From an uncultured Gemmatimonadales bacterium (GTDB taxonomy: Bacteria > Gemmatimonadota > Gemmatimonadetes > Longimicrobiales > RSA9), in NCBI GenBank assembly GCA_963798845.1, contig CAWCUS010000002.1, positions 480,001-544,000 on the forward strand: a stretch of 64,000 nucleotides of DNA, given 5' to 3'. The notes below the pieces were generated by a model, which had not been told where the DNA came from, ran no database searches, and was given only the letters and a program-made list of their open reading frames with translations. Below are positions 48,933 to 64,000 of this stretch, one piece after another. Both the position numbers and the translations under genes were made by a program. Numbering within the stretch: position 1 is the stretch's first letter; each line of letters starts with the position of its first letter.

Positions 48933-50627
48933 GTGAAGCTCGCAGCGGCGCCAGCCGACGCGGCGCAGGAAAGTATTGCATCCCGGCCCGGCGGAGGTCC
49001 AGAGTCTCGGTCCCGGGTCTGCTTCCGCCCCGCCGACCCGGCTCCACGGCAGGGCGGAGGCGGGGCCCGCTCTGCCGGGGCGCCGGTCCGGGATGGCCCC
49101 GGTCCTGCATGCGCGCCGCCCGAGACGGCGCCGCTCCTGCATCCGCGCCGCCCCGCGCTGGCGCAGCCCTCCTTCCGAGAGGCCTCCCTGAAGCGATTCC
49201 CGAACCCCCTCGTCCTCCTTTTCATCGGCGTGGTCCTGGCCGCGGCCATGACCTGGGTGCTGCCGGCCGGCCGCTACGACCGCCAGGCGGATCCCGCCAC
49301 CGGACGCCAGGTCGTCGTGAGCGGCAGCTACCACGCAGTCGCGCCCGATCCGGTGGGGCCGTTCGAGACCATCGTCGCCCTCCCGCGCGGGATGGAGGCG
49401 GCCGGCGACGTCATCTTCCTCGTGTTCCTGGTGGGCGGCGCGTTCACCGTGATCGACCGGACGGGCGCGTTCCATGGCGGGTTCGACCGGCTGGTGCGTG
49501 TGCTGGGCCGGCACGAGCTGCTGGTCATCCCCATCGCGTGCTACGTTTTCGGCGCGGCGGGCGCGCTCGAGAACATGCAGGAGGAGTTCATCGCGCTGGT
49601 GCCGGTGCTGCTGCTCCTCACCTCCCGGCTCGGCTTCGACACCGTCGTGGCCGTGGCCATCTCCCTGGGCGCCGCGTCCGTCGGCGCCGCCTTCAGCCCC
49701 ATCAACCCGTTCCAGGTCGGGATCGCACAGAAGATCGCGGGCGTCCCGCTGCTCGACCACGCCGCTTTCCGCTCCGCGTTCCTCCTGGTCGCGCTCGCGC
49801 TGTGGAGCTGGGGCACTGCCCGCTACGCACGTCGGACCAGAACCGCCCCGGGCGTCCCGCCCTCCGGGCCCCTCGAGGAAGACGAAGCAGCTTCGCGCGC
49901 TCCGGGCCGGCAGCTCCGCGAGGAGCCCGGTCACGTTCCCGGCGCGGCGGCGTCCACGCCCGGCGTCGCCCCGCACGAGGTCCGGATGACGGGGGCGCAC
50001 GCGCTGATCCTGGCGCTGGCCGTGCTCGCGTTCGGCATCTACGTCGTCGGCGTGATGCGGCTCGACTGGGGCTTCAACGAGATGTCCGCGCTCTTCCTCC
50101 TGCTCGGCGTGGTCGCCGGGCTCGTGGGCCGGCTCGGCGTCAGCGGCACCGCCGAAGCGTTCATCGAAGGCTTCCGGGCCATGGCCTTCGCCGCCATCCT
50201 CATCGGCTTCGCCCGCGCCATCTTCGTCGTGCTCGACGACGGCCGCGTGATCGACACCATCGTCCACGGCCTCTTCCAGCCCATCCAGGGACTCCCGCCC
50301 GCCCTCGCCGCCATCGGCATGGTCGCCGTCCACACCGCCGTCCACGTCCCCGTCCCCAGCGTGAGCGGCCAGGCCGTCCTCACCATGCCCATCCTCGCCC
50401 CCCTCGCCGACCTGCTCGGCCTCTCCCGCGACGTCGCCATCCTCGCCTTCCAGTACGGCGCCGGCATGTGCGAGATCCTCACCCCCACCAACGGCGCCCT
50501 CATGGCCGTCCTCGCGGCGGCGGGCGTGCGCTACGAGCGCTGGCTCGCCTTCGCGCTCCGGATGTGGGCCATGCTCGTGGCGCTCGGGATCGCGTCCATC
50601 CTGGTCGGGATCTGGATCGGGATGTAG
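48933..50627 (+). CDS. YfcC/DcuC-like transporter (true start probably about 49190)
   Basis: FPNPLVLL, TWVLPAGRYDR, PINPFQVGIAQ, VPSVSGQAVLTMPILAPL, PTNG. Confidence 0.88.
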   Translation: MKLAAAPADAAQESIASRPGGGPESRSRVCFRPADPAPRQGGGGARSAGAPVRDGPGPACAPPETAPLLHPRRPALAQPSFREASLKRFPNPLVLLFIGVVLAAAMTWVLPAGRYDRQADPATGRQVVVSGSYHAVAPDPVGPFETIVALPRGMEAAGDVIFLVFLVGGAFTVIDRTGAFHGGFDRLVRVLGRHELLVIPIACYVFGAAGALENMQEEFIALVPVLLLLTSRLGFDTVVAVAISLGAASVGAAFSPINPFQVGIAQKIAGVPLLDHAAFRSAFLLVALALWSWGTARYARRTRTAPGVPPSGPLEEDEAASRAPGRQLREEPGHVPGAAASTPGVAPHEVRMTGAHALILALAVLAFGIYVVGVMRLDWGFNEMSALFLLLGVVAGLVGRLGVSGTAEAFIEGFRAMAFAAILIGFARAIFVVLDDGRVIDTIVHGLFQPIQGLPPALAAIGMVAVHTAVHVPVPSVSGQAVLTMPILAPLADLLGLSRDVAILAFQYGAGMCEILTPTNGALMAVLAAAGVRYERWLAFALRMWAMLVALGIASILVGIWIGM

Positions 50628-50703
50628 GGGCGGCAACCGGCGACTTCGTATGTCGGCCCATCCCGGCATGGCCATGCCCGGGCCTCCGACTCAGAGTTGC
50701 CCC

Positions 50704-51783
50704 ATGACGGACGCCGTGCGGGTCACGGACGCGGCAACGCGGATCGAAGTCCGGTTCCCCTACGACGCGGAGCTGGTCGGCCACATCCGCTCGATACCGG
50801 GCCGGCGCTGGGACCCGGGCCGATCGGCGTGGCTGCTCCCGCGCACCGAGGACGCCCTCAACGCGCTGCTCCGGGCGCCCGACGCGAGCTTCCGCGTCGA
50901 CCGCGGTCTCATGCACCTGGTCCGCGTCCCGTTCCGCCGGGGCAGCGGAACCGATCCGGCGGCGGCGCTCCTCCAGCGCCTCTCGGAAGAGCTCCGGCTC
51001 CAGGGATACAGTCCGCGCACGCGGAAGAACTACGTCGGCCACGTCCGTCGGTTCTTCGGAGCTTTCCCGAAGGCCGCGACCGAGCTGTCGACGGAGCACG
51101 TCCGCGCTCACCTGCTCCGCCTCCAGGCCGACGACCGCTCCGTCTCCTACCAGCACCAGGCGATCAGCGCCATCCAGTTCGCGGCCCGGCTCGTCGATCG
51201 GCCGCTCGCGCTGGAGCCGATCCGCCGCCCGAAGCGGGAGCGCCAGCTCCCCGCCGTTCTCTCACGCGAGGAAGTGCGCCGCATCCTCAATGCCCCCGCC
51301 AACCCGACCCACCGGCTGGCCCTGATGCTCGCGTACTCCGCCGGACTCCGCGTCGGCGAGGTCGTACGCCTCAGCGCCGGCGACGTGGATTCCGGGCGAG
51401 GGCTGATCCGGGTCCGCGCCGGGAAGGGAAGGAAGGACCGCTATACGCTGCTGGCCGATGCCGCGGCCGCCGCCCTCGACCCCGTCCTCGCCCGCCTCGA
51501 CGCCGACGCCTGGATCTTCCCCGGTGCCCGCCCCGGCCGCCACCTGACGACACGCTCCGTGCAGAAGACCTTCGAGCGCGCCCTGGTCCGGTCCGGCGTA
51601 CGCAAGCACGCCACCGTGCACACGCTCCGCCACAGCTTCGCCACCCACCTCCTCGAGGCCGGCGTCAACCTCCGCTACATCCAGGAGCTCCTCGGCCACA
51701 CGAGCCCCCGCACCACCCAGATATACACCCACGTCAGCCGCGGCGATCTTACCCGGATCGTGAACCCGCTCGACGCAGCGTGA
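50704..51783 (+). CDS. Integron-type tyrosine recombinase with an N-terminal HARP-like domain, SAM-like domain and no IntI I2 insertion
   Basis: Catalytic R (GLRVGE), K (GKGRKDR), HTLRH, LGH, Y (IYTH); YSPRTRKNY SAM-like region; N-terminal FPYDAELVGHIRSIPGRRWDPGRSAW. Confidence 0.9.
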   Translation: MTDAVRVTDAATRIEVRFPYDAELVGHIRSIPGRRWDPGRSAWLLPRTEDALNALLRAPDASFRVDRGLMHLVRVPFRRGSGTDPAAALLQRLSEELRLQGYSPRTRKNYVGHVRRFFGAFPKAATELSTEHVRAHLLRLQADDRSVSYQHQAISAIQFAARLVDRPLALEPIRRPKRERQLPAVLSREEVRRILNAPANPTHRLALMLAYSAGLRVGEVVRLSAGDVDSGRGLIRVRAGKGRKDRYTLLADAAAAALDPVLARLDADAWIFPGARPGRHLTTRSVQKTFERALVRSGVRKHATVHTLRHSFATHLLEAGVNLRYIQELLGHTSPRTTQIYTHVSRGDLTRIVNPLDAA

Positions 51784-51983
51784 GGGGGAAGCGGCCGTCG
51801 GCCGCTCGAATCAGCCCCGTGCAAACGGCCGTGCTGAGCCCCTGTACAAGGTCATTGCTTCTGAACAAGAATGGCCCCAAATAGAGATGATTCGGGTCAG
51901 GCGGCCGGGGTGGGTGGCTCCGACAATCTGATAAGGACCTTTCCCGAACGACCGGCGCAAACATCCGGCCCGCCGACATCCTA

Positions 51984-52016
51984 CCGAACACGAGTTCGGT
52001 AACGCAGTAGTTAAGT
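51984..52016 (+). other. attI-like primary recombination site, crossover G/TT at 52010/52011
   Basis: CCGAAC-ACGA-GTTCGG then TAAC-GCAGTA-GTTA; GTTAAGTGC (52010) is the exact complement of GCACTTAAC (52186) ending cassette 1; no attC body upstream. Confidence 0.75.
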
Positions 52017-52187
52017 GCCATGCGCGCAACGGATCATTCGGGCGGGTACTGTGCTCGCCAGCGGCTGGTTCAGGAAAGCTCCAGGCCTCGAGCTGAGCTA
52101 AGATTGCCCCGCCCCGCCCGGGGAGGGCTAGGGGGGAGAGGCCCAGCAGCTAGAACGAAAGGGAAGACAGGGCAAGGCGCGCACAGC
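52011..52187 (+). other. Cassette 1 body: gene-less or small-ORF structured cassette (divergent family member)
   Basis: No RBS-led ORF; shares ends and internal motifs with cassettes 2, 4 and 10. Confidence 0.7.
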
Positions 52188-52337
52188 ACTTAACACACGG
52201 TTGCCGCCTCCGCTCGCTTCGCGAGCTCCGGAGTACCCGGCGGATTAGCGAACGGAGTTCGGGAAGTATCCGGACGGGGGAGGGGAAACGAGCAATCGAG
52301 GGGGCGGACGCCGGGTCGCCCACCTGAAACGTTAGCC
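52188..52337 (+). repeat. attC-like site 1
   Basis: ACTTAAC...GGTTGCCG...CGCCCACC...GTTAGCC, 150 bp; L stem has two mismatches. Confidence 0.85.
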
Positions 52338-52502
52338 GCCATGCGCGCGGAGGAGGCTCTTGGGTGTTGCGCCCGAAATCGGCCGAGCAGGAAAGGGAAG
52401 AGCTTCGTTCTGAGGATTGGCTGCCCCACCCCACCCAAGAGGCCCAGATTCGTGAAGGGCTTGGAGCTTTGGTTTGCGAGGGCAGGGCAGGGCGCACACA
52501 GC
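52332..52502 (+). other. Cassette 2 body: gene-less structured cassette, copy A
   Basis: Nearly identical to 53401-53571 and 60537-60707. Confidence 0.85.
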
Positions 52503-52654
52503 GGCTAACAACACGGTTGCCGCCTGCGCTCGCTGCGCTCGCTCCGGAGAACCCGGCGGATTAGCGAACTCGTGTTCGGAAAAGCGGCGGTGGATTGAAG
52601 CTACTGTGCACTCGGATCGCTGGACCGCCGGGTCGGCAACCGGAAACGTTATGC
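52503..52654 (+). repeat. attC-like site 2
   Basis: GGCTAAC...CGGTTGCCG/CGGCAACCG...GTTATGC, 152 bp. Confidence 0.9.
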
Positions 52655-52670
52655 GGCATCCGCTTCAGAG

Positions 52671-52940
52671 CTACAGGCGCTTCAAGAGTTGGTCATAGTC
52701 GGCGTGTGAGCCGATCCAGAACCAGATCCAGTCATCGTCGGCGCGGCGGGCCAAGGCTCTGTAGTGGAGCGATATGCGGGCTGAGAAGATCGGCTCGGTC
52801 GCGTGAACCTGCTTGAACTGCAGGCTCGGATGAGCCGGATTGGCGGAGAAGAGGTCGAAGGCCTCGCGAGCCCGCTCCTGGACGTCGGTAGGAAGTGAGG
52901 AATAGGCCTTCCGAAAAGATGAAGTGGTGCGGGAGGTCAA
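52671..52940 (-). CDS. RelE/ParE-superfamily toxin (cassette 3, antisense to the array)
   Basis: FRKAYSSLP...HPSLQFKQV...WFWIGSHADYD; start overlaps the antitoxin stop. Confidence 0.82.
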   Translation of the reverse strand: MTSRTTSSFRKAYSSLPTDVQERAREAFDLFSANPAHPSLQFKQVHATEPIFSARISLHYRALARRADDDWIWFWIGSHADYDQLLKRL

Positions 52941-53155
52941 AGCTTGGACGGGTCGAGGTTTTCCGTCTCACCTCGTGCGTCTTCGGCGAGGGCTTCGTTC
53001 GCGAGCTTCGCCAAGTCGTCCTGGGAGTTTTCAAAGGTCCGATCCCAGTTTCGATCGGACTCGAGCTCCTCCAGGAGTAGAGCGGCGATGGCGTCCTGCT
53101 GCTCGCTGGGGAGCTTGGACGCTTCGTCGAAAGCCTTCTTGAGTAGTTCGGTCAT
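52937..53155 (-). CDS. Putative antitoxin (cassette 3)
   Basis: Acidic 72-aa MTELLKKAFDEASKLPSEQQDAIA...; AAGGAGG RBS. Confidence 0.8.
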   Translation of the reverse strand: MTELLKKAFDEASKLPSEQQDAIAALLLEELESDRNWDRTFENSQDDLAKLANEALAEDARGETENLDPSKL

Positions 53156-53173
53156 GAGATCCTCCTTGGCCGG

Positions 53174-53203
53174 ATGATACCCAGGAGGGGATCGGCAGTT
53201 CAA
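53174..53203 (-). promoter_or_regulatory. Cassette-internal promoter of the TA operon
   Basis: TTGAAC-N18-TATCAT on the minus strand just upstream of the antitoxin RBS. Confidence 0.6.
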
Positions 53204-53250
53204 GAGCGAGAGGCGGTTTGCGGAGCGAAAGGCCTGGATTTGCGGACACC

Positions 53251-53406
53251 GCATAACAAACGGTTGGCGCCTGCGGTCGCTTCGCTCCCTCCGGAGAACC
53301 CCGCGATCAAGATCGTGGCGCCGGTCGAAGGGGCGGGGCAGTTTCGAAGGATGCTGCGCCGGGAAAAGCAGTGGCAGGCGGGGTCGCCAACCTGGAAACG
53401 TTAGCC
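53251..53406 (+). repeat. attC-like site 3
   Basis: GCATAAC...GGTTGGCG/CGCCAACC...GTTAGCC, 156 bp. Confidence 0.9.
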
Positions 53407-53571
53407 GCCATGCGCGCGGAGGAGGCTCTTGGGTGTTGCGCCCGAAATCGGCGGAGCAGGAAAGGGAAGAGCTTCGTTCTGAGGATTGGCTGCCCCACCC
53501 CACCCAAGAGGCCCAGATTTGTGAAGGGCTTGGAGCTTTGGTTTGCGAGGGCAGGGCAGGGCGCACACAGC
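53401..53571 (+). other. Cassette 4 body: gene-less structured cassette, copy B
   Basis: Two substitutions relative to copy A. Confidence 0.85.
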
Positions 53572-53679
53572 GGCTAACAACACGGTTGCCGCCTGCGCTC
53601 GCTGCGCTCGCTCCGGAGAACCCGGCGGATTAGCGAACTCGTGTTCGGAAAAGCGGCGGTGGATGAAGAAACGTTAAGC
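53572..53679 (+). repeat. attC-like site 4, internally deleted (right arm missing)
   Basis: Matches site 2 up to GGTGGAT, then GAAG joins directly to AAACGTTAAGC; 108 bp versus 152 bp. Confidence 0.85.
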
Positions 53680-53712
53680 GCAATTGACGCAGCGTACTCG
53701 AAGGGAGGCTGG

Positions 53713-54714
53713 ATGAGGCTGTCCAGCAGAACGATCAGTGATCTTGCCGAACTGATCTGCGGTGCTAGCGGTGGCGGTGGCGGCTATGACTGGTCACACT
53801 TCCCATACAGATCCAGCTCCCGTCTCACCGAATTCTTCAGGAACTGCGACCTTGATTACGTTCATCAAGGTGAGACTAGGAAGTGGTGGGTCGAAGAGGT
53901 CCTTACGGAGCTCAACAAAGCACCTGCCTCCACTCCCCACCTCCCACCGGGCGGCATCATTCGAGTGCTCCAGGAGCTGCTGGACCCGCTGGACTATAAA
54001 CGGGCCGAACTAGATCAGTCCGCGGCGCTGAAGGACCTAAACGCGGTCGTCTCTCGGGATGGTTTGGAGGTTTACCTCGACGGGTCGCGTCGCGCGCATG
54101 TGAGGAATCGCGACACTGAGGCGACCTCTGCCAACCTTAAAATCCAGTCCCGCCCTCTGACCAAGGAAGAGTTGGAGAAGAGACGCAAGGCTGAGGAATT
54201 TCTCGAGAAAGCTTCGGAAGACGAGATAATCGAGGAGCTGCTTGTACCGTTGTTTCGACAGTTGAATTTTCTGCGAGTGAGTCCGACAGGGCACCGGGAC
54301 AGATCGCTGGAGTTCGGCAAGGACTTGTGGATGAAGTTCCAGCTGCCGACCGGTCACTTCATCTACTTCGGCGCTCAAGTCAAGCGAGACAAGATCGACG
54401 CCGCTGGAAGGGATGTCACCAAGAATATCAGCGGTATCATCGCCCAAGCAGAGATGATGCTAGACCACCCGGTTTTCGACCCAGAGAGCAACCGCAAGCA
54501 TCTCCTTGACCACGTCTTCATCATTTCAGGCGGGGAAATAACGAAGCAAGCGAGATCACTGATCGTGGAGAACCTGGACCGAGAGGCGCGCCGACATCTG
54601 ATCTTCATGGATCGAGACGAACTTCTTGATCTGGTGGTCCTTACGGGCACACGGATACCTGAAGAGGAAGCTGAGGCTGCGAGTTCGCCGATCGATGATG
54701 ACCTGCCATTCTAG
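53713..54714 (+). CDS. Cassette 5: PD-(D/E)xK (Mrr/restriction endonuclease-like) protein with an AbiJ-like N-terminal region
   Basis: GGGAGG RBS; YRSSSRLTEFF N-terminal motif; EFGKDL...AQVKR nuclease-like motif. Confidence 0.7.
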   Translation: MRLSSRTISDLAELICGASGGGGGYDWSHFPYRSSSRLTEFFRNCDLDYVHQGETRKWWVEEVLTELNKAPASTPHLPPGGIIRVLQELLDPLDYKRAELDQSAALKDLNAVVSRDGLEVYLDGSRRAHVRNRDTEATSANLKIQSRPLTKEELEKRRKAEEFLEKASEDEIIEELLVPLFRQLNFLRVSPTGHRDRSLEFGKDLWMKFQLPTGHFIYFGAQVKRDKIDAAGRDVTKNISGIIAQAEMMLDHPVFDPESNRKHLLDHVFIISGGEITKQARSLIVENLDREARRHLIFMDRDELLDLVVLTGTRIPEEEAEAASSPIDDDLPF

Positions 54715-54744
54715 GCGGGTGGACAGTGAAGGGGCGTCAACTGC

Positions 54745-54893
54745 GCTTAACAAACGGTTGGCGCCTGCGCGGCCTGCGGCCGCTCCGGAGAACCCGCCGC
54801 GGCCGTGTTGAAGCTGGTGAGAGGATCGCAGTTTCGAAGGTGATGCGCACTGGAGGTTGTGGCGCGGCGGGTCGCCAACCTGGAACGTTATCT
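54745..54893 (+). repeat. attC-like site 5
   Basis: GCTTAAC...GGTTGGCG/CGCCAACC...GTTATCT, 149 bp. Confidence 0.9.
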
Positions 54894-55286
54894 GCAATTG
54901 GCTCAACGACTGAGGGAGGGTGAATGGACCTCAAGCGCGTCCTCGAAGAAATCTCTGATCATCTCGCGCCGAAGCTGGACACCTATGAGCACGCCCTCTA
55001 CACGTACCTGTTCCGCAACACGGTGCTGCGAGGAGAACCAGAGGCTGTAATCGGCTTCAAATCTGCGCGCCACGAGTTGCCGAGGGGAATCGGGACCGCA
55101 GGAACGGCAATGGCCGAGGGGACATGCTATGAGAAGCTCAGGTCCTTAGAAGCCAAGGGCTGCATCAAGGTGTTGGGTACAGAACGGCAAGGAACGCGGG
55201 TGCGGCTGTTCTTGCCGAGTGATATTGTGGGTTCTCTGAACTATGTCCGGTTAATTCTCGAAATTCTGGCCGGCCGGGAGCGTGAG

Positions 55287-56062
55287 CTAGGCGGCTTCAG
55301 AGTCCGGGGTCTCCTCCTGTTTGAGATGGCGGGTGCGGTAGGAGCGGCCGCGGAGCACGAAGTGAGTGCCGCGCTCCAGGAGCCGGTCGAGGATCGCCTC
55401 CGCAAGATCGGCATCATGCAGCACCTGACCGAGGGCGGCCAGAGGCTTATTGGTGGTGACGATCATGGGTCGGTGCCTGAGGTAGCGGTCGTTGACCACC
55501 CGGTAGAGCACGTTGGCGGCATCGGCGGCATAGCTCTGATAGCCGAGCTCGTCGATGATCAGGACGTGGGGGTGGACGTAGGGTTCGAGCGCCTCGTCCA
55601 GCCGTCCCTCAGTGGCCGCGTTGGAGAGGGCGCCGATCAGCTCATCCGCGGTGGTGAATCGGGCCTCGAATCCGTTCTGGATCGCTCGGTAGCCGATGGC
55701 TACCCCCATGTGGGTCTTCCCTCGACCCGGCGGGCCGCTGAAATGGCGCACCGGCCTTCGCTCACCAGCTCCGGCCCCAGCAGCGTGCCGAGCATCTGGA
55801 GGCGGACGCTGGTCTGGAAGGTGAAGTCGAATTCCTCAATGGTGCGGAGGAAGGGGAAGCGGGCCTTGCGGACGGACCGGGTGATCCGGGTCTGCGCCCG
55901 GTGAGCGATCTCCTCGGCCACCAGCAGCTCGAGGAAGGTGCGGTAGCTCATGCCCTCCTCCTCGGCCCGGATCGCCAGGTCCGGATACAGGCGCCGGATG
56001 GTCGGCATGTGGAGGCGCTTGAGCATGGCGTCGAGGTCGTCCAGCGGCACCGGAGTCTTCAT
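55287..56062 (-). CDS. istB: IS21 helper ATPase, frameshifted at about 55742
   Basis: ARFPFLRTIEEFDF then GPPGRGKT, IIDELGY, AILDRLL in another frame; one T missing from a short T run. Confidence 0.88.
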
Positions 56063-57468
56063 GAGGCCACCTCCTTCGCCGCCAGCCCGATCACGTACTC
56101 AGCTCCGATCAGCCGCTGGAAGAGCGCGCGCTGGAGCAGGCGGAGGAAGCGCTCCTGGCCGAGCTCCTCGAGCAGGGCGAAGAGGCGCTCCACGTCTCCT
56201 TTCCATGTGTGGGGTCGGGCGTGGATGAGCTCCGTCAGGTAGCCCTCTCCTACGGGCCCCAGCTCCAGGATTCGCTCCCGCATGAAGTAGAGGCGCTTCC
56301 GTGCACCGGCCACGGCCGCCAGCTGCTCGGCCCGCTGGCCGGGCAGGTAGCTGGTGTTTCCGATCTTTGGAAACCTGGGGTGGGTGGCCTCGAAGCGGGC
56401 GCCGGTGGTGACGATCCGGAGCCGGTCCGGGTACAGGTGGAGCGTGGCCGGGATCCCGCACGCACCCGCCGGCATGGCGTAGCGCACGCCCTGGAAGTCC
56501 ACGAGCGCGGTGGGTCCCACGTGGACAGCGTAACGCAGACCGTACTCGGCCGGCGGGATGGCCAGCGGCTTCATCCGCGCCTGCTCTGCGGTCAGCCGGA
56601 TCTTGGGGATCTCCTTCGTGGCCCGGGATGGCCGCTCCTCATTCCCCCCGATCAGCCAGTCCAGGAGCTGACGGGGGAGGTCCTGGTCGAGCTCAGCGAA
56701 GCGGCGGGCCCGGAAGAAGCTCCGCTTCACCCACCCCACCAGATTCTCCACCGATCCCTTCTGCTGCGGGCTCCTGGGCGTGCACAGCCCGATCGTGAAG
56801 CCATAGTCGATGGCGACCTGGGCCAGCGTGGAATTCCAGATCGGCCGGCCCCGGTCGTCGCGGCCCACCACCACCGTCTTCGGATTGTCGAAGACCACCC
56901 GGAGCGGCACCCCGCCCGAATGCTCGAAGCCGGCCAGGAGTGCCCGGACGAGTGACTCGATCCGCTCGTCCGGCACGATCACCACCCACACCCACCGCGA
57001 GTACTTCAGACGGTACGCCGCGAAGTGAACTCGCTTCTTCCGTCCATCCAGCAGCCGGACGTCGGCCTGACCGAAATCGAACTGGGCGAACTCCCCGGCC
57101 ACCCCCTCGAACCGCACCATCAGCTCCGCCGGCAGCTTCCCCTTCTCCAACCGGAAGACCCGGTAGAAGGTGCTCTCCGCCAGCTCCGCCCCCTCCTCCC
57201 GAAGCTGACGCAGGTATTCCAGGGGTGGAGCCTCGGGATCCTCCGCGATCAGATCCACCAGCCGGCGCTTCACCGCCTCCGGCACCGCGGGACGCCCGAT
57301 CCCCCGGCGCTTCCTCTCCGCCGCATCGTCTCCCTCCGCCACCGGCGGCTCCTTCGAGATCCGACGGACAGACCGCTCCGAGATCCCCAGCTGCCTCGCG
57401 ATTTCCGTCTGCTTCTGCCCCGCCTCCAGCAGCGCATGCACCGCATGTCGATCGATCACCCTGAGCAT
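56059..57468 (-). CDS. istA: IS21 transposase
   Basis: N-terminal HTH, RFEGVAGEFAQFDFG, FDNPKTVV, KGSVEN. Confidence 0.93.
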   Translation of the reverse strand: MLRVIDRHAVHALLEAGQKQTEIARQLGISERSVRRISKEPPVAEGDDAAERKRRGIGRPAVPEAVKRRLVDLIAEDPEAPPLEYLRQLREEGAELAESTFYRVFRLEKGKLPAELMVRFEGVAGEFAQFDFGQADVRLLDGRKKRVHFAAYRLKYSRWVWVVIVPDERIESLVRALLAGFEHSGGVPLRVVFDNPKTVVVGRDDRGRPIWNSTLAQVAIDYGFTIGLCTPRSPQQKGSVENLVGWVKRSFFRARRFAELDQDLPRQLLDWLIGGNEERPSRATKEIPKIRLTAEQARMKPLAIPPAEYGLRYAVHVGPTALVDFQGVRYAMPAGACGIPATLHLYPDRLRIVTTGARFEATHPRFPKIGNTSYLPGQRAEQLAAVAGARKRLYFMRERILELGPVGEGYLTELIHARPHTWKGDVERLFALLEELGQERFLRLLQRALFQRLIGAEYVIGLAAKEVAS

Positions 57469-58021
57469 CCTCCCCCGCCTCCATCTGACAGGAACTCCAT
57501 CCTGCCCGGGACGGGACTACAGTATTCTACGGAGGCTCCTCAGCCGGCCAGATTTTCGAGAGATCAGCGGTCAGAATTCGGGGAACTCACAGATATCGAC
57601 GGCGTCGTCCCAGTTGTTGGGGAAGAGCAGCGGCCCCGCCTAGAAGATCTGGACTTTTTCAATAATGCCTCAAATCGCGAGGCTATCCTGCGGCGAGAGG
57701 ATGGCCGCTGCTTCTATTGCCTTCGGCAGGTTGATGGATCGAATCATGTGATCGAACACCTTACGGCACGGCGGGAGGGAGGCAACGGATACACCAACGT
57801 GGTCGCCGCCTGTCGAGAGTGTAACAATAGGAAGGGGGCAGGCAGTCCTGAGGACCATCTTCGGCGGCTCTATAGGAGTGGTCTCCTGAACGCCGACGAA
57901 ATGGAAGGTCGTTTGGCCGCCCTTGATCTGGTCAGGACGGGCCAGCTAAAGCCGACGCTCGCGGATTTTGAGGATGCGGAGGTTGCCTAGGCGAGTGGAC
58001 CTCGGACGGGGAGCCAACTGC

Positions 58022-58172
58022 AGATGACAAACGGTTGGCGCCTGCGCGGCCTGCGGCCGCTCCGGAGAACCCGCCGCGACCGTGCCGAAGCTGGTGAGGT
58101 GTTCGCAGTTTCGAAGGTGATCGCGCGCCTGAGGTTGTGGCGCGGCGGGTCGCCAACCTGGAAACGTTAGAC
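58022..58172 (+). repeat. attC-like site 6 (R'' AAC changed to GAC)
   Basis: AGATGAC...GGTTGGCG/CGCCAACC...GTTAGAC, 151 bp. Confidence 0.88.
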
Positions 58173-58200
58173 GGCATTCCTTTGGAGCGGGAAAGGTCTG

Positions 58201-59297
58201 ATGGCGGATTCTGACCAGCTCGATCTCGAAGCTGCTATTGAGGAAGCCGAAGAAGCTGACCTCGAGAAAGAGCGTGATGCAGTTCTTGCCGCGGTGTCAG
58301 CCAGCCGGCTGGATACGCTGCAAAAGAGGGTTGCATGGGTTCTGAACCATTACCCGGATGCCAGAGATTCCGATGTTGCTCTGTACATACGTTATTGGCG
58401 TGAGTTTGAAGGCGAGCATGTCGAAGGGGAGTACGTCAAGCTCAAGAACATTACCGTCTGACTCGGCCGGCGTCGCTTACCCGAGCCCGAGCCAAGCTTC
58501 AGAACGAGTACAGGTTATTCCTGGCGAGTGACGAAGTCAGAAAACACCGCGGAACACTGTCGGAGGAGGAAAAGGAAAAGGCGGTTAGTCAAAGGCCCAC
58601 GTTCCCAATGTACACGGCCTATGCCGATGAGAGCGGAAAGACCGACAACTTCTTAGTGGTTGGAGCCGTTTGGTTTCTGAACGGTCCGGAGATCATCGAG
58701 GTGACCCAAGAGGTGGAGAGGCTTGCCAAGGCGCGCGGCATTTCCGCCGAACTCCACTTCAGAGAGATCGACTACTCTACGTTGGACTTCTACAAGGAAG
58801 TGGCTGCGTTGGTACTGGCTCGTTCAGCAACCATTTCATTCACTTCGATCAGCGTCGAGCGAAGAGGCCACAAGCGAGTGGACGATGCCATTGCTAACCT
58901 GTATGAGCATCTGCTTCTCCGAGGGGTGGAGTACCACGACTCCACGAACAGAGCGCCACTGCCACGGAGCCTTAGCGTCTTCAAGGATCGCGAAGAAGTA
59001 GGCCGAGACAAGCTACTGATGGCGAATCTCGAAGAGTCGCTCAGACAGGCGAGTGAGGCGCGGCTGGAGGGAAAGCTGTACGTCGACAGGCTGGCGGCCG
59101 TTGACTCCGAGGAGAACATCCCGGTTCAGCTTGGCGATCTGTACACCAGCAGCGTCGCCAGAGTCTTGAACGCCACGGGCAAGCGCAACTCAGCACGAGA
59201 TGATTTCGCGGATTTCTTCTTAGGAGAGCTGGGGATCCCCAATGGTCCAGCCGCGGAAGAGCGGGTGGGGGACATGGTGGCTCACGTGGCCTTGTGA
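58201..59297 (+). CDS. Cassette 7: DUF3800-like (RNase H-fold) protein with an N-terminal extension, frameshift at about 58450
   Basis: YADESGK, ELHF, VQLGDLY motifs; 58201-58461 joins the 58608 frame via YRLTRPASLTRARAKLQNEY. Confidence 0.75.
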
Positions 59298-59318
59298 TAT
59301 CCCTCATGGAGGAACGCC

Positions 59319-59469
59319 GTCTAACAAACGGTTGGCGCCTGCGCGGCCTGCGGCCGCTCCGGAGAACCCGCCGCGGCGGCTTGGAAGCTGGTGAGGTTCG
59401 TGTGATTTCGAAGGTGATCATGCGCTGGAGATAGTGGCGCGGCGGGTCGCCAACCTGGAAACGTTAGGC
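59319..59469 (+). repeat. attC-like site 7
   Basis: GTCTAAC...GGTTGGCG/CGCCAACC...GTTAGGC, 151 bp. Confidence 0.9.
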
Positions 59470-59496
59470 GCCACGCTCTACGAGAGGAGGCGGATC

Positions 59497-59951
59497 ATGT
59501 ACTGTGATGTCGTTCGAGCGCTGGTTGTTGCGGGCGTACTGATTGGCAGCACCGCCTGTTTAAGTACTAGCGCCGTCGATTCGCCCGTCGAAGTTGGCGT
59601 TGACATCGATAAACATCAGTCAGCGTCGGAGACACGGTGGTGTTCACCACAGCCGTCCACAACCCCACGGATCGGCGAATTCAAGTCGGAGTGGAATGCG
59701 GGCCCAGCCTAGACGTTCAGCTTCGGAGGCCCGACGGTTCAAGCCTTTCGGTGTTGAGCCGCATTGTCGGAGGTGGTGCGTTCACGTGCGAATTGGCGGA
59801 ACACCATTTCGCCGATCCCGGAGAAACGGAACGGCTGACGCTTCGGTGGAAGGCTGAAGCTCCGAGAGGGACGTACTTGGCCGTTGCTCAAACCAGGTGC
59901 GGGGAGGACCAGTGTCCCACGAGCGACCCCGTGACTTTTGTCGTGAAGTAG
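59497..59951 (+). CDS. Cassette 8: putative lipoprotein with an Ig-like domain, frameshift at about 59612
   Basis: AGGAGG RBS, lipobox-like STAC; adding one A to the AAA run gives DKTSVSVGDTVVFT... Confidence 0.65.
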
Positions 59952-59972
59952 GTGATATGGCGCTCGCGCAGC

Positions 59973-60128
59973 GCCTAACAAACGGCTGGCGCCTCCGCGG
60001 ACTGCGGCCGCTCCGGAGAAACCCGGCGCGACCGTTTCTGAGCAGTCGAAGGCTCGTGTAGTTTCGAAGGCTGTGGAGCTGGTGAGTTCATGGTGAGCGC
60101 CGGGTTCGCCAGCCTGGAAACGTTAAGC
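59973..60128 (+). repeat. attC-like site 8
   Basis: GCCTAAC...GGCTGGCG/CGCCAGCC...GTTAAGC, 156 bp. Confidence 0.9.
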
Positions 60129-60158
60129 GCCAGAGCCCGCAATCTGGAGGAGGCAATA

Positions 60159-60398
60159 TTGACTCGTCGCGAACTGTCGCAGACCGGATGCCGAAACGTC
60201 TTGGCGCTGATGGGGATTGCCTCGTTGGGCTTGTTAACGATAGGCCTGACAGGATTCGATTCTTTCGACACCGGGTGGATCAGGTAGGGGCTGCGCGCGG
60301 TCTGGACAGGGGGGATGGCCGTGGCCGTTTGGACAATCGGTCGTGCGGCCCGGAAGGCGATCGAACTGCTTGAGGACGTGGCCAGCTCCGGCGCTTAA
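60159..60398 (+). CDS. Cassette 9: small membrane protein, apparently frameshifted (in-frame stop at 60287)
   Basis: GGAGGAGG RBS before TTG; one TM segment; a second frame MAVAVWTIGRAARKAIELLEDVASSGA ends at the TAA inside R''. Confidence 0.45.
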
Positions 60399-60542
60399 CA
60401 CACGGCCGCCGCCTTCGCTCGCTGCGCGAGCTCCGGAGAACCCGGCGTCAAGCGCACCGCCCTCGAGGAGAGCATTGAACCACTGGTAGACAGGCGGTAT
60501 GGAGGGATGTGCCGCCGGGTCGGCGGCCTAGAAACGTTAGCC
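60393..60542 (+). repeat. attC-like site 9
   Basis: GCTTAAC...GGCCGCCG/CGGCGGCC...GTTAGCC, 150 bp. Confidence 0.9.
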
Positions 60543-60707
60543 GCCATGCGCGCGGAGGAGGCTCTTGGGTGTTGCGCCCGAAATCGGCCGAGCAGAAAAG
60601 GGAAGAGCTTCGTTCTGAGGATTGGCTGCCCCACCCCACCCAAGAGGCCCAGATTCGTGAAGGGCTTGGAGCTTTGGTTTGCGAGGGCAGGGCAGGGCGC
60701 ACACAGC
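60537..60707 (+). other. Cassette 10 body: gene-less structured cassette, copy C
   Basis: One substitution relative to copy A. Confidence 0.85.
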
Positions 60708-60859
60708 GGCTAACAACACGGTTGCCGCCTGCGCTCGCTGCGCTCGCTCCGGAGAACCCGGCGGATTAGCGAACTCGTGTTCGGAAAAGCGGCGGTGGAT
60801 TGAAGCTACTGTGCACTCGGATCGCTGGACCGCCGGGTCGGCAACCGGAAACGTTAACC
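60708..60859 (+). repeat. attC-like site 10
   Basis: Same body as site 2, ends GTTAACC, 152 bp. Confidence 0.9.
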
Positions 60860-60925
60860 GCCATGTTCCACTCGGCGTTTCTGTAGCAGATTAGGAGCAA
60901 GGGACTTCAGGGAAGGAGCTTGCGG

Positions 60926-61150
60926 ATGTCGAGTGTACCAATCGAGGAACTGCTCAAGCTGTCGGTCGCTGAGCGGATTCAGTTGGTGGAGGACCTGTGG
61001 GACAGCATCGCTACGGACGCGGACGCCTATCCATTAACTGAGGCCCAGAAGGCGGAACTGGACCGTAGGCTGGCAGAACATGAAGCGGACCCGGATTCTG
61101 CTATTCCCTGGGAGGAAGTCCGGGAGCGGTTGTACAAGAAGTACGGGTGA
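60926..61150 (+). CDS. Cassette 11: addiction-module antitoxin (TIGR02574-like)
   Basis: LSVAERIQLVEDLWDSI...LTEAQKAELDRRL...IPWEEV. Confidence 0.9.
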   Translation: MSSVPIEELLKLSVAERIQLVEDLWDSIATDADAYPLTEAQKAELDRRLAEHEADPDSAIPWEEVRERLYKKYG

Positions 61151-61443
61151 GCCGCCGCTTCGTTGTTCGCCCTGCGGCCGACGCCGAACTCGAGGAAGCC
61201 GCAGCGTGGTATTCGGAGCGTTCCTTGGGCTTGGGAGCGGAATTCGTCCGCGTCATCGATGCGGCTTTCTCAGCGATCCAGCGGAATCCTCTCCGATTTC
61301 CCATTCTGTATCGGGATGTCCGGAGGGCCGTTGTTCGGCGATTCCCATATGCCATTCTCTTCAGAGCGAGCGCGGAAGAGATCGTGGTACTCTCCGTTTT
61401 CCATTCCCGCCGCGATCCGAAGCGTTGGCAGGCCCGGAGGTGA
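61147..61443 (+). CDS. Cassette 11: ParE/RelE-family toxin
   Basis: PAADAELEEAAAWY...GLGAEF...RRFPYAI...VFHSRRDP; GTGA overlap with the antitoxin. Confidence 0.9.
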   Translation: MSRRFVVRPAADAELEEAAAWYSERSLGLGAEFVRVIDAAFSAIQRNPLRFPILYRDVRRAVVRRFPYAILFRASAEEIVVLSVFHSRRDPKRWQARR

Positions 61444-61535
61444 CGTCCGCCAGGCTGCGGGCAGAATGTCAATGCCGGACGAAAACAGCACAGATGTGGC
61501 GCTCGAAAATGCCACACTCGAGGGGGGACGAGCCC

Positions 61536-62375
61536 TCAGGTTGTCGTAGCCTCCAGACGGGCACGTCGCCGTGGTTTGGGTGAAGGCTCTTCCTCCAGGT
61601 CGGGGGTGTGGAGCGCCTGCCAGACCTCGGAGTGCCGACGAAGGCGATAGCTGTTGCCCCGGATGTTGACAATGTGGCAATGGTGAAGCAGCCGGTCGAT
61701 CAGCGCCGCGGCCATGACTTCATCGCCGAAGATGGCGCCCCATTCTTCAAAGCTCTTGTTCGAGGTCAGGACCGTCGACGCCCGCTCATAGCGCCGGTTC
61801 ACGAGCTGGAAGAAGAGCATGGCTCCGGTGTGGCTGACCGGGAGGTAGCCGATCTCGTCCACCACCAGGAGCGAGGGGTGGCTCAGGACGCTCATCCGTT
61901 GCTTGAGCATGCCCGCCGCTTTGGCTTCCTCGAGAGACGAGATCAGATCTGCCAGGGTCCCGTAGTAGACGCGACGCCCGTGCTCGGCGGCGGCGATGGC
62001 GAGGCTGATGGCCAGGTGCGTTTTCCCGACTCCAGGAGGGCCGAGGAAGATCACGTTCTCCTTTCGCTCAATGAAGCCGAGTTCGTGGAGGCTCTCAATC
62101 TGCTCTCGCTTGATCGAGGGCTGGAATGAGAAATCGAAATCGGTGAGCAGCTTCACCGCCGGAAGCCGGCTCGAGCGCATGGCGGCCTGCAGACGTCGGT
62201 TGTTGCGGAGTTGGATCTGAGCTCCGAGGAGCTGCTCGATAGCCTCGCTTGGCGTGACCTCGCCACCATCGACGGCGGAAAGAATGGAGTCCAGGGCCTC
62301 CAGGGCCCCCGGCATCTTCAGGTCGGCCAGCATGGACCGGATGTGATCACGACGGGACACCTTGGCCCCTCTCAT
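61536..62375 (-). CDS. istB: IS21 helper ATPase
   Basis: DFDFSFQPSI, GPPGVGKTHLA, VVDEIGY, LIDRLLHH, GNSYR. Confidence 0.93.
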   Translation of the reverse strand: MRGAKVSRRDHIRSMLADLKMPGALEALDSILSAVDGGEVTPSEAIEQLLGAQIQLRNNRRLQAAMRSSRLPAVKLLTDFDFSFQPSIKREQIESLHELGFIERKENVIFLGPPGVGKTHLAISLAIAAAEHGRRVYYGTLADLISSLEEAKAAGMLKQRMSVLSHPSLLVVDEIGYLPVSHTGAMLFFQLVNRRYERASTVLTSNKSFEEWGAIFGDEVMAAALIDRLLHHCHIVNIRGNSYRLRRHSEVWQALHTPDLEEEPSPKPRRRARLEATTT

Positions 62376-63406
62376 TGGCCACCTGCCGCGATGCGGGCGT
62401 AGGTGGAGAGCGAGCGGCGCTGCACCGCAATCGCGGGGAGGAGCGACCGATCTCTCACCTCCTGCTTGCGCTCCATGGGGATGACCAGCGAGCGGTAGGA
62501 CCGCTCGGCCAGCGGAAGGAGGTGCTCCCGCTCCCTCTCGAAGCGCGCCACCGGCTGTTCCTTTGTGGTGCCGTGGATCCGGACGTTCGCCGTTTTCTCC
62601 AGCCACTGCTCGAGGCGAGCGTCCAGATCCTCGTCCCCGACAAACTCGCGGCCGTAGACGAAATTGCGGCGCACGTAGCTCACCGGCCGCTCGACCTTGC
62701 CTTTCGTCCGGGCTCGATAGGCTCTACAGGCGCGGATGTCGAAGCCCCAGTGAGCAGCGAAGCGCAGAAACTCCTCGTTCTTCAGGAGCTCACCTCCTTC
62801 CAGCCGCCGATCGTCCAGGATCACGTTCTTGAGCTGGTCGAAGAGGAGGTGCTGCGGTACTCCACCGAAGAAGCGGAAGGCCGCTTCCAGCCCCTCGTAC
62901 AGCGCCCCCGTGGTCTTCCGCGGGAAGTAGCGCACCCAGAGGAGTCTGGAGAAGCCGAGCACGACCAGAAGCGCATACCGCTTGCCCCACGGAAATCTGA
63001 AGTCCGCGAAGTCCACCTGAGCCTGCCGGCCCGGCGGAGTCTCGAAGCGGATCACCGGCTCCTCCGGCAATCGAGGGCGGACCTGCCTCACGTACACCTT
63101 CACCTGCGTGTAGCCCCCGTCGTAGCCGGCGGCCTTCACCTCCTCGAAGAGCCGCACGGCCGAGAGTTCCGGATACTCCTTCAGCCGCTGTCCGATGATC
63201 GCCTTGTACGGCTCGAGCTTCCACGGCACCGCAGGCCGCGGCCCGTACCGCACCGGGTCCTGATCCAGATCCCGGTCCAACTGGCCCCTCCGGATCCACC
63301 GATAGATCGTGGTCCGATCGACGCCGAGCATCTCGGCAATGGCCGCCTTCGGCAGCCCCTGCTCGAGGTAGTGTCGCAACAGCACACGCTGCTCCCTTCC
63401 ATGCAT
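62372..63406 (-). CDS. istA: IS21 transposase
   Basis: HTH, RFETPPGRQAQVDF, LFDQLK, TKGKVERP. Confidence 0.93.
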   Translation of the reverse strand: MHGREQRVLLRHYLEQGLPKAAIAEMLGVDRTTIYRWIRRGQLDRDLDQDPVRYGPRPAVPWKLEPYKAIIGQRLKEYPELSAVRLFEEVKAAGYDGGYTQVKVYVRQVRPRLPEEPVIRFETPPGRQAQVDFADFRFPWGKRYALLVVLGFSRLLWVRYFPRKTTGALYEGLEAAFRFFGGVPQHLLFDQLKNVILDDRRLEGGELLKNEEFLRFAAHWGFDIRACRAYRARTKGKVERPVSYVRRNFVYGREFVGDEDLDARLEQWLEKTANVRIHGTTKEQPVARFEREREHLLPLAERSYRSLVIPMERKQEVRDRSLLPAIAVQRRSLSTYARIAAGGQ

Positions 63407-63560
63407 GGCGCCTCCACGGTGGGCGTGAAGACGCCAAGGTGGGATCGGAGCCGCACCTCCTGCGAGAGCTTCAGCGCGGCTCAGGGACGATCAGCGAGTG
63501 TCGCATTTTCGCCCGCCACATTCTGTGGAATTTTCGGCCGCCGCTAACACAGAACACGGC

Positions 63561-63711
63561 GGTTAACAAACGGTTGGCGCCTGCGCGGCCTGCGGCCGCT
63601 CCGGAGAACCCGCCGCGACCGTGTTGAAGCTGGTGAGGCTGCCGCTGTTTCGAAGGTGATCGCGTGCTAGAGGTATCGGCGCGGCGGGTCGCCAACCTGG
63701 AGACGTTAGCC
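63561..63711 (+). repeat. attC-like site 11
   Basis: GGTTAAC...GGTTGGCG/CGCCAACC...GTTAGCC, 151 bp. Confidence 0.9.
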
Positions 63712-63740
63712 GCCATTGGGCCCGGAGAGGAAGGAACACG

Positions 63741-64000
63741 GTGCTACCGCAAGACACAGCGCAGGTAACAGCGCCATTGTCATGGATGGATTGGGCAGGG
63801 GGCGTTGAGAGCGTGCTGACCAGTTTGGCGATCGTGATCGGAGCAGTATGGACCTACTTCAAGTTCTTCCGTGGCCGCACCTTTCATGAGCGCCTTGGAG
63901 CCAGCGTGTCCGCATCTCGCAGAGACGCTGTGGGAATGCAATTCCTTGACGCCAGGGTGACGGTAGCCAATGTAGGGTTGTCGAAGGTTCCCCTCGTGCA
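63741..64000 (+). CDS. Cassette 12: hypothetical membrane-anchored protein, 3'-partial
   Basis: Purine-rich RBS then GTG; MLPQDTAQ...LAIVIGAVWTYFKFFRGR..., open to the window end. Confidence 0.65.
   Translation, partial: MLPQDTAQVTAPLSWMDWAGGVESVLTSLAIVIGAVWTYFKFFRGRTFHERLGASVSASRRDAVGMQFLDARVTVANVGLSKVPLV

Follow-up and report, generated by a model that had tools for sequence, protein, structure and literature searches.

Can an integron work with an integrase that lacks the I2 region? This question is raised by a recombinase gene and the cassette array behind it, which occupy positions 50,704 to 64,000 of the window analysed here, a stretch of 64,000 nucleotides (nt) from an uncultured Gemmatimonadales bacterium (GenBank assembly GCA_963798845.1, contig CAWCUS010000002.1, positions 480,001 to 544,000). 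The source genome, which we designate G000, comprises 4.26 Mb in six contigs at about 70% GC, and the window corresponds to G000:C2:480001-544000; coordinates without a contig prefix count from the first letter of the window. Homologues of named origin and the position of a named contig (L017) in the tree indicate Gemmatimonadota. In those portions of three papers that we cite (PMC7790495, PMC9668308, PMC9024848), the I2 domain is treated as defining and indispensable for integron integrases (IntI) and as enabling single-strand recombination of attC sites. The recombinase in question is related to IntI, but lacks this region. Our reading, to which we assign a probability of roughly 80%, is that the locus represents a sedentary chromosomal integron of a non-canonical kind, in which an I2-less, HARP/SRD-like integrase from the lineage that gave rise to IntI would move the cassettes of the array. 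A preliminary description of the stretch had proposed a distinct integron class around an I2-less recombinase, and the comparative evidence given below supports this interpretation. The central features, all on the plus strand, are:

50704..51783, plus strand: gene for an I2-less, IntI-like tyrosine recombinase (open reading frame (ORF) of 359 amino acids (aa); Pfam, NCBIfam, phmmer)
50704..50943, plus strand: putative N-terminal HARP/SRD-like domain (aa 1-80; Pfam below cut-off, AlphaFold2, Foldseek)
51466..51537, plus strand: short linker in place of the IntI additional domain with its I2 helix (about aa 253-278; alignment to VchIntIA)
51995..52016, plus strand: attI-like site AAC-N6-G/TTA with the crossover at 52010/52011 (complementarity of the first cassette; 13-mer shared with genome G167)

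The recombinase and its missing I2 region

Pfam assigned the 359-aa protein to Phage_integrase (PF00589, 2e-42) and to the SAM-like family SAM_4 (6e-14). In an alignment of 25 homologues, R216, H306, R309, H332 and Y341 were invariant and the hairpin lysines K241/K244 invariant or nearly so. Among the NCBIfam models the integron integrase TIGR02249 ranked first with 204 bits against a cut-off of 265, its match being broken into two stretches that skip model positions 180-234. PRK15417 (140 bits, cut-off 435), XerC (173, cut-off 335), XerD (163, cut-off 330) and XerA scored lower and likewise stayed below their cut-offs. The nearest solved protein was the Vibrio integron integrase VchIntIA (2A3V, phmmer 9.6e-38), in which residues 9-171 matched aa 93-252 and residues 240-318 matched aa 279-357 of the recombinase. 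Between these blocks, 26 aa stand where VchIntIA has 68 aa, and the I2 region is thus absent. Direct alignment with three canonical IntI proteins gave the same gap (31 + 10 columns), and the spacing from KDR to HxLRH amounted to 58-62 aa in the I2-less enzymes compared to 100 aa in canonical IntIs. An AlphaFold model of the protein (pLDDT 84) retrieved 2A3V as the top match in Foldseek (E 9e-15), followed by archaeal XerA.

These results bear out three statements of the preliminary description, according to which all catalytic residues are present, the insertion that defines IntI is lacking and software may report the enzyme only as Xer-like; given a TIGR02249 score of 204 bits below the cut-off of 265, annotation would indeed assign such a label. 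A fourth statement, a distance of about 22 aa between the motifs KDRYTL and WIFP, was right about the short gap and slightly off in its length, which we counted as 20 aa.

The protein carries an additional N-terminal portion. HARP (PF07443) matched aa 33-61 with an E-value of 0.0045 and 17 bits, under the Pfam gathering cut-off of 25. Modelled alone by AlphaFold2 together with 17 homologous N-termini, aa 1-80 yielded a pLDDT of 86 and a repeated beta-beta-alpha unit; a W36/W43 motif was kept in the 17 homologues. In Foldseek, this model matched the HARP domain of SMARCAL1 best (4O66, E 0.047, probability 0.95, TM 0.43-0.52), with XPB damage-recognition domains (DRD) next. A structure search independent of Foldseek (VIA) returned the N-domain of T4 UvsW (Z 7.3), the XPB DRD (Z 6.4) and 4O66 (Z 3.6), where Z values below 8 may mean merely a common fold. 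The SMARCAL1 HARP domain, the UvsW N-domain and the XPB DRD form one family of structure-specific DNA-binding domains directed at forks and branches. With moderate confidence, we therefore consider aa 1-80 a HARP/SRD-like domain. The preliminary description had spoken of a HARP domain outright, which was an overstatement of a moderately supported call. The homologue family of the recombinase is very large, and the N-terminal domain is kept in it.

The gene immediately upstream (48933-50627) encodes a DcuC-type C4-dicarboxylate carrier. Its composition is normal for the genome, so the low-GC island described below begins at or just before the recombinase gene. Two Xer-type genes, at C2:372373-374649 and C5:91541-92551, are further recombinases of the source genome.

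The cassette array and its attC sites

A profile built from the window's own repeats detected 17 attC sites between C2:532192 and C2:552627, 11 of them inside the window, and two more of the same class on contig C5. All 17 sites lie on the plus strand, as does the recombinase gene, in agreement with the earlier claim of a co-oriented integrase. The GC content of the array was 0.59-0.66 compared to about 0.71 outside, and normal composition was regained near C2:556000. A structure-based detector with a recovery of 9-11 out of the 17 known sites gave 11 matches within the array of about 21 kb versus about 0.7 per 100 kb elsewhere in G000, more than chance would produce; its background outside arrays was 30 matches in 4.26 Mb (about 0.14 per 20 kb).

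Each attC site opens with TAAC, an unpaired 4-nt spacer and L'', continues with a small-hairpin segment, a second stem and a loop that varies, and runs back along the return strands and an unpaired 5-7-nt spacer to GTTA, with a size of about 145 nt in this array and about 87-160 nt in relatives. The L box forms a perfect helix of 8-11 bp without extrahelical bases, the second stem measures 9-10 bp, and the asymmetry of the site resides in a bulged side hairpin of 25-36 nt on the R''/L'' arm. Among 19 sites gathered by sequence homology from G000, G380 and G167, changes on both sides occurred in 13 of 27 proposed pairs. Furthermore, 93% of the stem cells were paired, in comparison with 31-52% when the partner strand was slid, and none of 500 shuffles equalled the observed covariation.

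In 12 of 14 cassettes, the first of them read with its G at 52010, at least five of the six bases after GTTA were complementary to the cassette's own R'', while the starts of other cassettes, taken as control, matched at a mean of 3.08 of six bases and reached five in 17 of 168 combinations. Such complementarity of a cassette to its own end is the classical mark left when cassette circles recombine at G/TT.

The same mark located the attI-like site. Since the 5' end of the first cassette is complementary to its own R'' with the G placed at 52010, the junction was set at 52010/52011, that is, 227 bp past the stop codon of the recombinase gene; an attI-like site downstream of the gene had been claimed before and is thereby corroborated. 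The left half of the site, AACGCAGTAG, together with TTA makes up the exact 13-mer AACGCAGTAGTTA, which recurs in the closest orthologous locus (G167, whose recombinase shares 70% identity) and is embedded in otherwise unalignable spacers. The right half of the junction is cassette-specific. In orthologues more distant than G167 the 13-mer was not found. A simple TAAC-N5-8-GTTA motif was rejected as an attI candidate, as it is not kept across orthologous loci. At the far end of the array, a partial attC (C2:551854-551932) ends in GTTAAGTGCCAT, 12 bases that are also found at the junction of attI and first cassette, and the last attC (C2:552489-552627) has a degenerate R' with GCT in place of GTT.

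The features of the array within the window are as follows:

52191..52334, plus strand: attC 1 (profile, covariance model)
52335..52651, plus strand: copy 1 of an ORF-less cassette, with attC 2 at 52506-52651 (repeat, profile)
52652..53403, plus strand: cassette 3 with ParE-like toxin (52671-52940, minus strand), putative antitoxin (52937-53155, minus strand) and attC 3 (53254-53403)
53404..53674, plus strand: copy 2 of the ORF-less cassette, with the shortened attC 4 at 53575-53674 (repeat, profile)
53675..54890, plus strand: cassette 5 with a 333-aa ORF of unknown family (53713-54714) and attC 5 (54748-54890)
54891..58169, plus strand: cassette 6 with an HNH-endonuclease gene (from 54924, and 57598-57990) split by an IS21-family insertion sequence (IS)
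55226..57591, minus strand: IS21-family insertion with istA (56059-57468) and 49-nt inverted ends
58025..58169, plus strand: attC 6, with a degenerate R'' (TGAC; profile)
58170..59466, plus strand: cassette 7 with an 86-aa ORF, a DUF3800 protein (58608-59297) and attC 7 (59322-59466)
59467..60125, plus strand: cassette 8 with a 104-aa ORF (59637-59951) and attC 8 (59976-60125)
60126..60539, plus strand: cassette 9 with attC 9 (60396-60539; L box GGCCGCCG/CGGCGGCC, compensatory)
60540..60856, plus strand: copy 3 of the ORF-less cassette, with attC 10 at 60711-60856 (repeat, profile)
60857..63708, plus strand: cassette 11 with antitoxin (60920-61150), ParE toxin (61147-61443) and attC 11 (63564-63708)
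61494..63521, minus strand: second IS21-family insertion, inside cassette 11
63709..64000, plus strand: start of cassette 12; the remaining six attC sites lie past the window, where the array reaches C2:552627

The window thus holds 11 complete cassettes, and the number of at least 12 given in the preliminary description is reached only with the twelfth, which is cut by the window end. The cargo, consisting of two ParE-type toxin-antitoxin pairs, an IS-disrupted HNH nuclease, a DUF3800 protein and proteins of unknown function, is typical of sedentary integrons. An Rfam search of 50000-64000 at gathering thresholds yielded no family, a result that says nothing on the ORF-less cassettes. Three IS21-family copies reside in the array, two of which split cassettes, and the third lies outside the window (L161:3511-5693). 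In the first copy, istB is distributed over two overlapping frames (55287-55751 and 55700-56062).

Traces of cassette movement were found at two places. The ORF-less cassette of 316 bp, which has no consistent ORF, occurs three times (from 52332, 53403 and 60538); identity between copies 1 and 3 is 100% over 300 nt, and for copy 2 it is 90%. The attC sites upstream of the three copies differ, and identity begins and stops at GTTA. In copy 2, the attC is internally shortened to 101 nt from 145 nt. The earlier statement that every copy keeps its attC body therefore applies to copies 1 and 3 and fails for copy 2; the conclusion drawn from the differing upstream sites, namely crossover at G/TT and past shuffling, agrees with the borders of identity. 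The second case is cassette 11, of which an uninterrupted copy (99.2% identity over 634 nt) is present at C5:360209-361117 behind a different attC. There, it lies after a different gene and between two attCs of the same class.

Clusters of at least two attC sites without an integron-integrase nearby are known as CALINs (clusters of attC sites lacking integron-integrases), a term that applies strictly to the two-cassette cluster on C5. This mini-array (locus L163), far from any integrase, contains an Mrr-like restriction-nuclease gene with a seeming frame change, followed by the intact toxin-antitoxin cassette 11.

Short cassettes of about 316-343 bp, with 170-197 nt of non-attC sequence and stops in all frames, were multicopy in three unrelated arrays (52013-52334, 52335-52651, 53404-53674 and 60540-60856 in the window; L118:8648-16095; L025:12406-14306), and G270 contains at least ten tandem 342-bp units of this type. 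They possibly represent non-coding RNA genes, promoter cassettes or spacer cassettes. Among public sequencing runs, only three metagenome contig sets from one study contained a share of the sampled words (0.10-0.17), and their alignment at 90% likeness gave low-depth fragments. In one contig, 53394 is directly connected with 53668, so that precisely copy 2 of the ORF-less cassette is left out (depth 2, side 56), and another leads from 54883 back to 53397. Both joins fit variation at the level of cassettes, but as single low-depth contigs, retrieved at a permissive threshold and possibly from the source sample itself, they were not counted as support.

Linkage in relatives and competing explanations

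Among 401 genomes of the phylum (including the unpublished G097, G182 and G157, on which no claim rests), homologues at E<=1e-60 were found at 22 places in 20 genomes from families f1, f2 and f7 and in none of the 259 genomes of f4 and f5. Canonical IntI above the TIGR02249 cut-off was detected in 164 of the 401 genomes, mostly in f4 and f5, and 12 of the 20 genomes with an I2-less gene gave no TIGR02249 match at 1e-50. Ten of the 22 places were set aside because they end at most 1.9 kb from the downstream contig end or could not be extended, and the other 12 have flanks of at least 2.8 kb. An adjacent array was present at 10 of these 12 places, nine times co-oriented and downstream and once divergent and upstream (G239, two sites at a contig start). 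Apart from G000, the detector gave matches in G270 (18), G356 (15), G288 (10), G302 (6), G380 (4), G249 (4) and G364:C1 (2), and in G167 a single match was complemented by two from the profile. Five array-bearing genomes were searched for canonical IntI, and three of them had arrays but no such gene (G249, a single contig; G380; G270).

We then asked whether the attC class itself follows the I2-less gene. A covariance model (R1) of 34 branched attCs from nine genomes was run on 61 genomes. Matches were obtained in 16 of the 20 genomes carrying the I2-less gene; of the 11 whose sequences had not entered the model, 7 were matched. By contrast, only 1 of 41 genomes without the gene was matched. 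None of the 18 genomes lacking both integrases gave a match, and among the 23 that have canonical IntI alone there was 1; this sole exception (G394) is a 400-contig genome from a genus in which the I2-less gene is common. The contrast with the canonical-only genomes is clean despite kinship and partial circularity. In G356, the array of branched attCs extends over about 44 kb (C1:1096659-1140891), with 39 R1 matches in the genome, and several genomes have isolated R1 matches megabases from the main array (G288:C3, G249:C1) that look like CALINs.

A further 79 loci came from other phyla of a species-level genome collection. Self-BLAST for repeats revealed arrays at few of them only; as roughly every second known site escapes the detector, loci without a match are not evidence of absence. 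In an Ignavibacteriota locus (L025), an I2-less recombinase without the N-terminal domain is followed by at least ten co-oriented branched attCs, and the domain is therefore not obligatory. A Firmicutes locus (L043) combines an I2-less recombinase with an array in the classical divergent arrangement, and in a Cytophagales locus (L075) the N-terminal domain is present along with a downstream array. Moreover, at loci with the N-terminal domain the contig ended within 2 kb downstream in 14 of 21 cases versus 3 of 21 upstream, as repeats would cause. A search of homologues for arrays, which the preliminary description had suggested as a check, thus succeeded both within the phylum and in these three loci beyond it.

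The same description had named a canonical IntI, at the far end of the array or elsewhere in the genome, as a finding that would speak against the I2-less enzyme. A six-frame profile search of the whole genome found no recombinase at the far array end and returned only the I2-less gene, the two Xer-type genes and a canonical IntI fragment. This canonical IntI, with the additional domain, lies 530 kb away at C2:1393-2273 and is read in two frames: TIGR02249 scored 197 and 216 bits in the two frames of C2:1322-2267, with an apparent frameshift near 1827-1831. It heads a co-oriented array of its own with four attCs of 59-114 nt that have one extra G in L''. Upstream of it, at the contig start, are HigB/HigA-like ORFs (locus L162, G000:C2:1322-8194). 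That it has an array with another kind of attC speaks for two systems in parallel and against one enzyme acting on both. G356 and G302 also hold both integrase types, with 17 and 4 extra-G attCs, respectively, beside the canonical gene. In all three genomes, the branched attCs (perfect L box, side hairpin) adjoin the I2-less gene and the extra-G attCs (59-114 nt, single extra G in the L box) adjoin canonical IntI. The canonical genes of G000, G356 and G302 and of an Eisenbacteria locus (L078) are co-oriented with their arrays, so that the rarity ascribed to co-oriented intI genes in the preliminary description does not hold in this phylum.

These data bear directly on the explanation that survives best beside our own, in which the array is a CALIN of a classical integron moved in trans by the canonical IntI of C2:1393-2273, and the I2-less recombinase is a Xer-like bystander belonging to some other element. 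Such an enzyme with the additional domain exists in G000, where the frameshift may be a sequencing error; IntI is known to act on distant attC clusters, and a canonical IntI match is likewise present in 8 of the 20 I2-less genomes. However, in each of the three genomes viewed canonical IntI stands before an array of its own with attCs of another class, 22 of 23 canonical-only genomes lack the branched class (G394 being the exception), arrays accompany the I2-less gene in the three genomes without canonical IntI, and linkage, orientation and attI motif are conserved. We consider action in trans unlikely as an account of this array. It would be still more surprising if the I2-less recombinase were tied to the array without capturing cassettes, for instance by resolving or inverting the array or by integrating an island, with the cassettes built by another enzyme. 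The classical Xer-type build of the protein would fit such a role, enzymes of this kind acting on double-stranded core sites, as would the resemblance of the attI candidate to a simple AAC-N6-GTT core and the GC content of the array region below that of the genome. Yet the crossovers occur at the G/TT of each cassette and not at island ends, G249, G380 and G270 offer no other candidate enzyme beyond host Xer matches, and the attC class tracks the I2-less enzyme, which makes this explanation highly improbable. That the repeats constitute a family of repetitive extragenic palindromes (REP), miniature inverted-repeat transposable elements (MITE) or terminators between genes and no integron-type system at all is hardly credible, for although long GC-rich palindromes after stop codons and the want of a matching Rfam family would suit it, it conflicts with the cassette-specific complementarity (12 of 14), the duplication of whole cassettes with exact GTTA borders, the uniform polarity of 17 of 17 sites, the integron-typical cargo (toxin-antitoxin pairs, HNH, DUF3800) and the confinement of the sites to one or two loci.

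Several points weigh against the reading of the locus as an integron run by the I2-less enzyme. The enzyme's presumed function on this array is deduced from linkage. The frameshift in canonical IntI could be an assembly error, and action in trans is therefore possible in G000. Covariation in the stems is also compatible with cruciform or paired-site models. Two of the 12 assessable places (G279:C13 and G364:C89) showed no array, and R1 found no match in G179, G364, G366 and G086 (4 of 20; 110-340 contigs each). In addition, the nine genomes that supplied the sites for R1 are themselves among the positives, and genomes that are related do not count as independent samples. Beyond the phylum, enrichment was modest, with 10 matches in 57.5 kb downstream versus 8 in 133.9 kb upstream of genes with the N-terminal domain, and the structure-based detector revealed no arrays beside the alphaproteobacterial I2-less clade described below. 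The HARP call was sub-threshold in Pfam, and its Foldseek E-value was 0.047. Finally, a scan of 50400-52400 for sigma-70-type promoters and terminators found none, the promoter types of the phylum itself being outside the scan.

Possible mechanism, known systems and descent

Taking the locus as a non-canonical sedentary integron, we propose that the I2-less enzyme, and not the canonical IntI elsewhere in the genome, would carry out insertion and excision of cassettes in this array. An incoming cassette circle would be integrated at the attI-like site (AAC-GCAGTA-G/TTA) 227 bp past the gene, and for cassettes already in place, recombination between two attCs would lead to excision or shuffling, with crossover at the G/TT of the R' box. 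The enzyme may bind the R and L boxes of the folded attC and exchange one strand at R' as IntI does. We assume that the bulged hairpin on the R''/L'' arm could serve as the mark of strand and polarity in lieu of extrahelical bases, which fits the joint absence of I2, the element that contacts and reads these bases in 2A3V (PMC7790495, in the portion cited). The HARP/SRD-like domain might read or hold the branched attC DNA, and the cassettes may be transcribed by read-through from the integrase side. Alternatively, a double-strand, Xer-like mechanism on R'-spacer-L' cores is possible.

In its layout, the locus resembles sedentary chromosomal integrons such as that of VchIntIA with its VCR sites or the 'inverted-integrase' integrons of Spirochaetota. 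Common traits are a tyrosine recombinase gene beside attI, promoter-less cassettes each ending in an imperfect palindrome R''-L''...L'-R', the G/TT crossover with a cassette start complementary to the own R'', toxin-antitoxin cargo and IS insertions. It departs from integrons with canonical IntI in that the enzyme has no additional domain with I2 (26 versus 68 aa), bears a further, HARP/SRD-like domain at its N-terminus, does not reach the TIGR02249 cut-off and is placed outside the canonical clade, and in that the attCs have a bulged hairpin of 25-36 nt and a second stem instead of an extrahelical L-box base. The SAM-like and catalytic core, the length, the lack of I2 and the rank of XerA as next-best PDB match recall XerC, XerD and XerA; scores far below the XerC and XerD cut-offs and an accessory (20 of 401 genomes), array-linked gene set it apart from XerC/XerD. 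Unlike CALINs, the array is headed by an intact, conserved, IntI-related recombinase beside an attI-like site. We thus regard the evidence as pointing to an undescribed variant, or second type, of integron.

Detection software relies on the additional domain to separate IntI from Xer proteins. IntI is distinguished by that domain in PMC9024848, and a search defined in this way would probably file the present array as a CALIN. Archaeal IntIs likewise carry the additional domain (PMC9668308), and the gain of I2 is viewed as an innovation, with Xer proteins as the closest relatives and intermediates lacking (PMC7790495). The nearest prior observation in this material is that of Smyshlyaev, Bateman and Barabas (2021, PMC8138268), who describe an 'integron-like' subgroup of simple tyrosine recombinases in which the insertion is 'not fully conserved' yet essential for integron function; the cited portion of that paper does not tie the insertion-less members to attC arrays, to an attC class or to a HARP-like domain. 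Our literature search, with subscription journals and supplements outside its reach, returned no paper in which cassette arrays are connected with IntI relatives lacking the insertion or with a HARP domain.

If our reading is correct, a large share of integron-type gene-capture platforms is now filed as a Xer-like gene plus a CALIN, and the I2-less sister group would supply the 'intermediates' whose absence limits the reconstruction of IntI evolution according to PMC7790495 (as cited in part). It would also open a direct test of the real need for I2 and extrahelical bases. G000 and two relatives with both attC classes represent a natural experiment in cross-specificity, and such genomes could be the source of two structure-specific recombination systems that are orthogonal to each other.

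The phylogeny of the recombinase was reconstructed after removal of the insertion columns, with the Xer proteins of G000 as outgroup. Canonical IntI formed one clade (support 100), and the Gemmatimonadota clade of the recombinase (97) lay outside it. Canonical IntI, the Gemmatimonadota clade, a Firmicutes protein and two Undinarchaeales proteins were grouped with a support of 97 (FastTree, 141 rows), and the same IntI-containing group received 93 in the SH-like approximate likelihood-ratio test (IQ-TREE, mixture model, 70 rows). I2-less relatives and IntI together were split from host Xer at 99. A comparison with IntI and Xer had been proposed in the preliminary description, and its outcome is consistent with a separate position of the recombinase relative to both. 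In the Xer-rooted tree, I2 would consequently be a single gain within the I2-less radiation. Judged from these trees, canonical IntI probably nests among the I2-less enzymes, a placement that is not proven since the Xer sampling was thin and the tree search 'quick'. A wider scenario is tentative, and we would give it a little less than even odds: the I2-less, often HARP-fused enzymes would be the older and broader group of integron integrases, acting on folded attCs without extrahelical bases whose branched hairpin, a three-way junction, is read by the SRD-like domain or by the core, and IntI would be one derived branch in which I2 and attCs with extrahelical bases were acquired jointly, both systems being orthogonal and maintaining separate cassette pools in genomes like G000.

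Two lineages of the tree deserve mention. Short I2-less relatives with about 36% identity (loci L057-L092), mostly from Alphaproteobacteria, form a well-supported clade nested in the radiation. In an Undinarchaeales locus (L019:8451-11032), two I2-less genes are arranged in tandem at a contig end, and their products stand beside canonical IntI in both trees.

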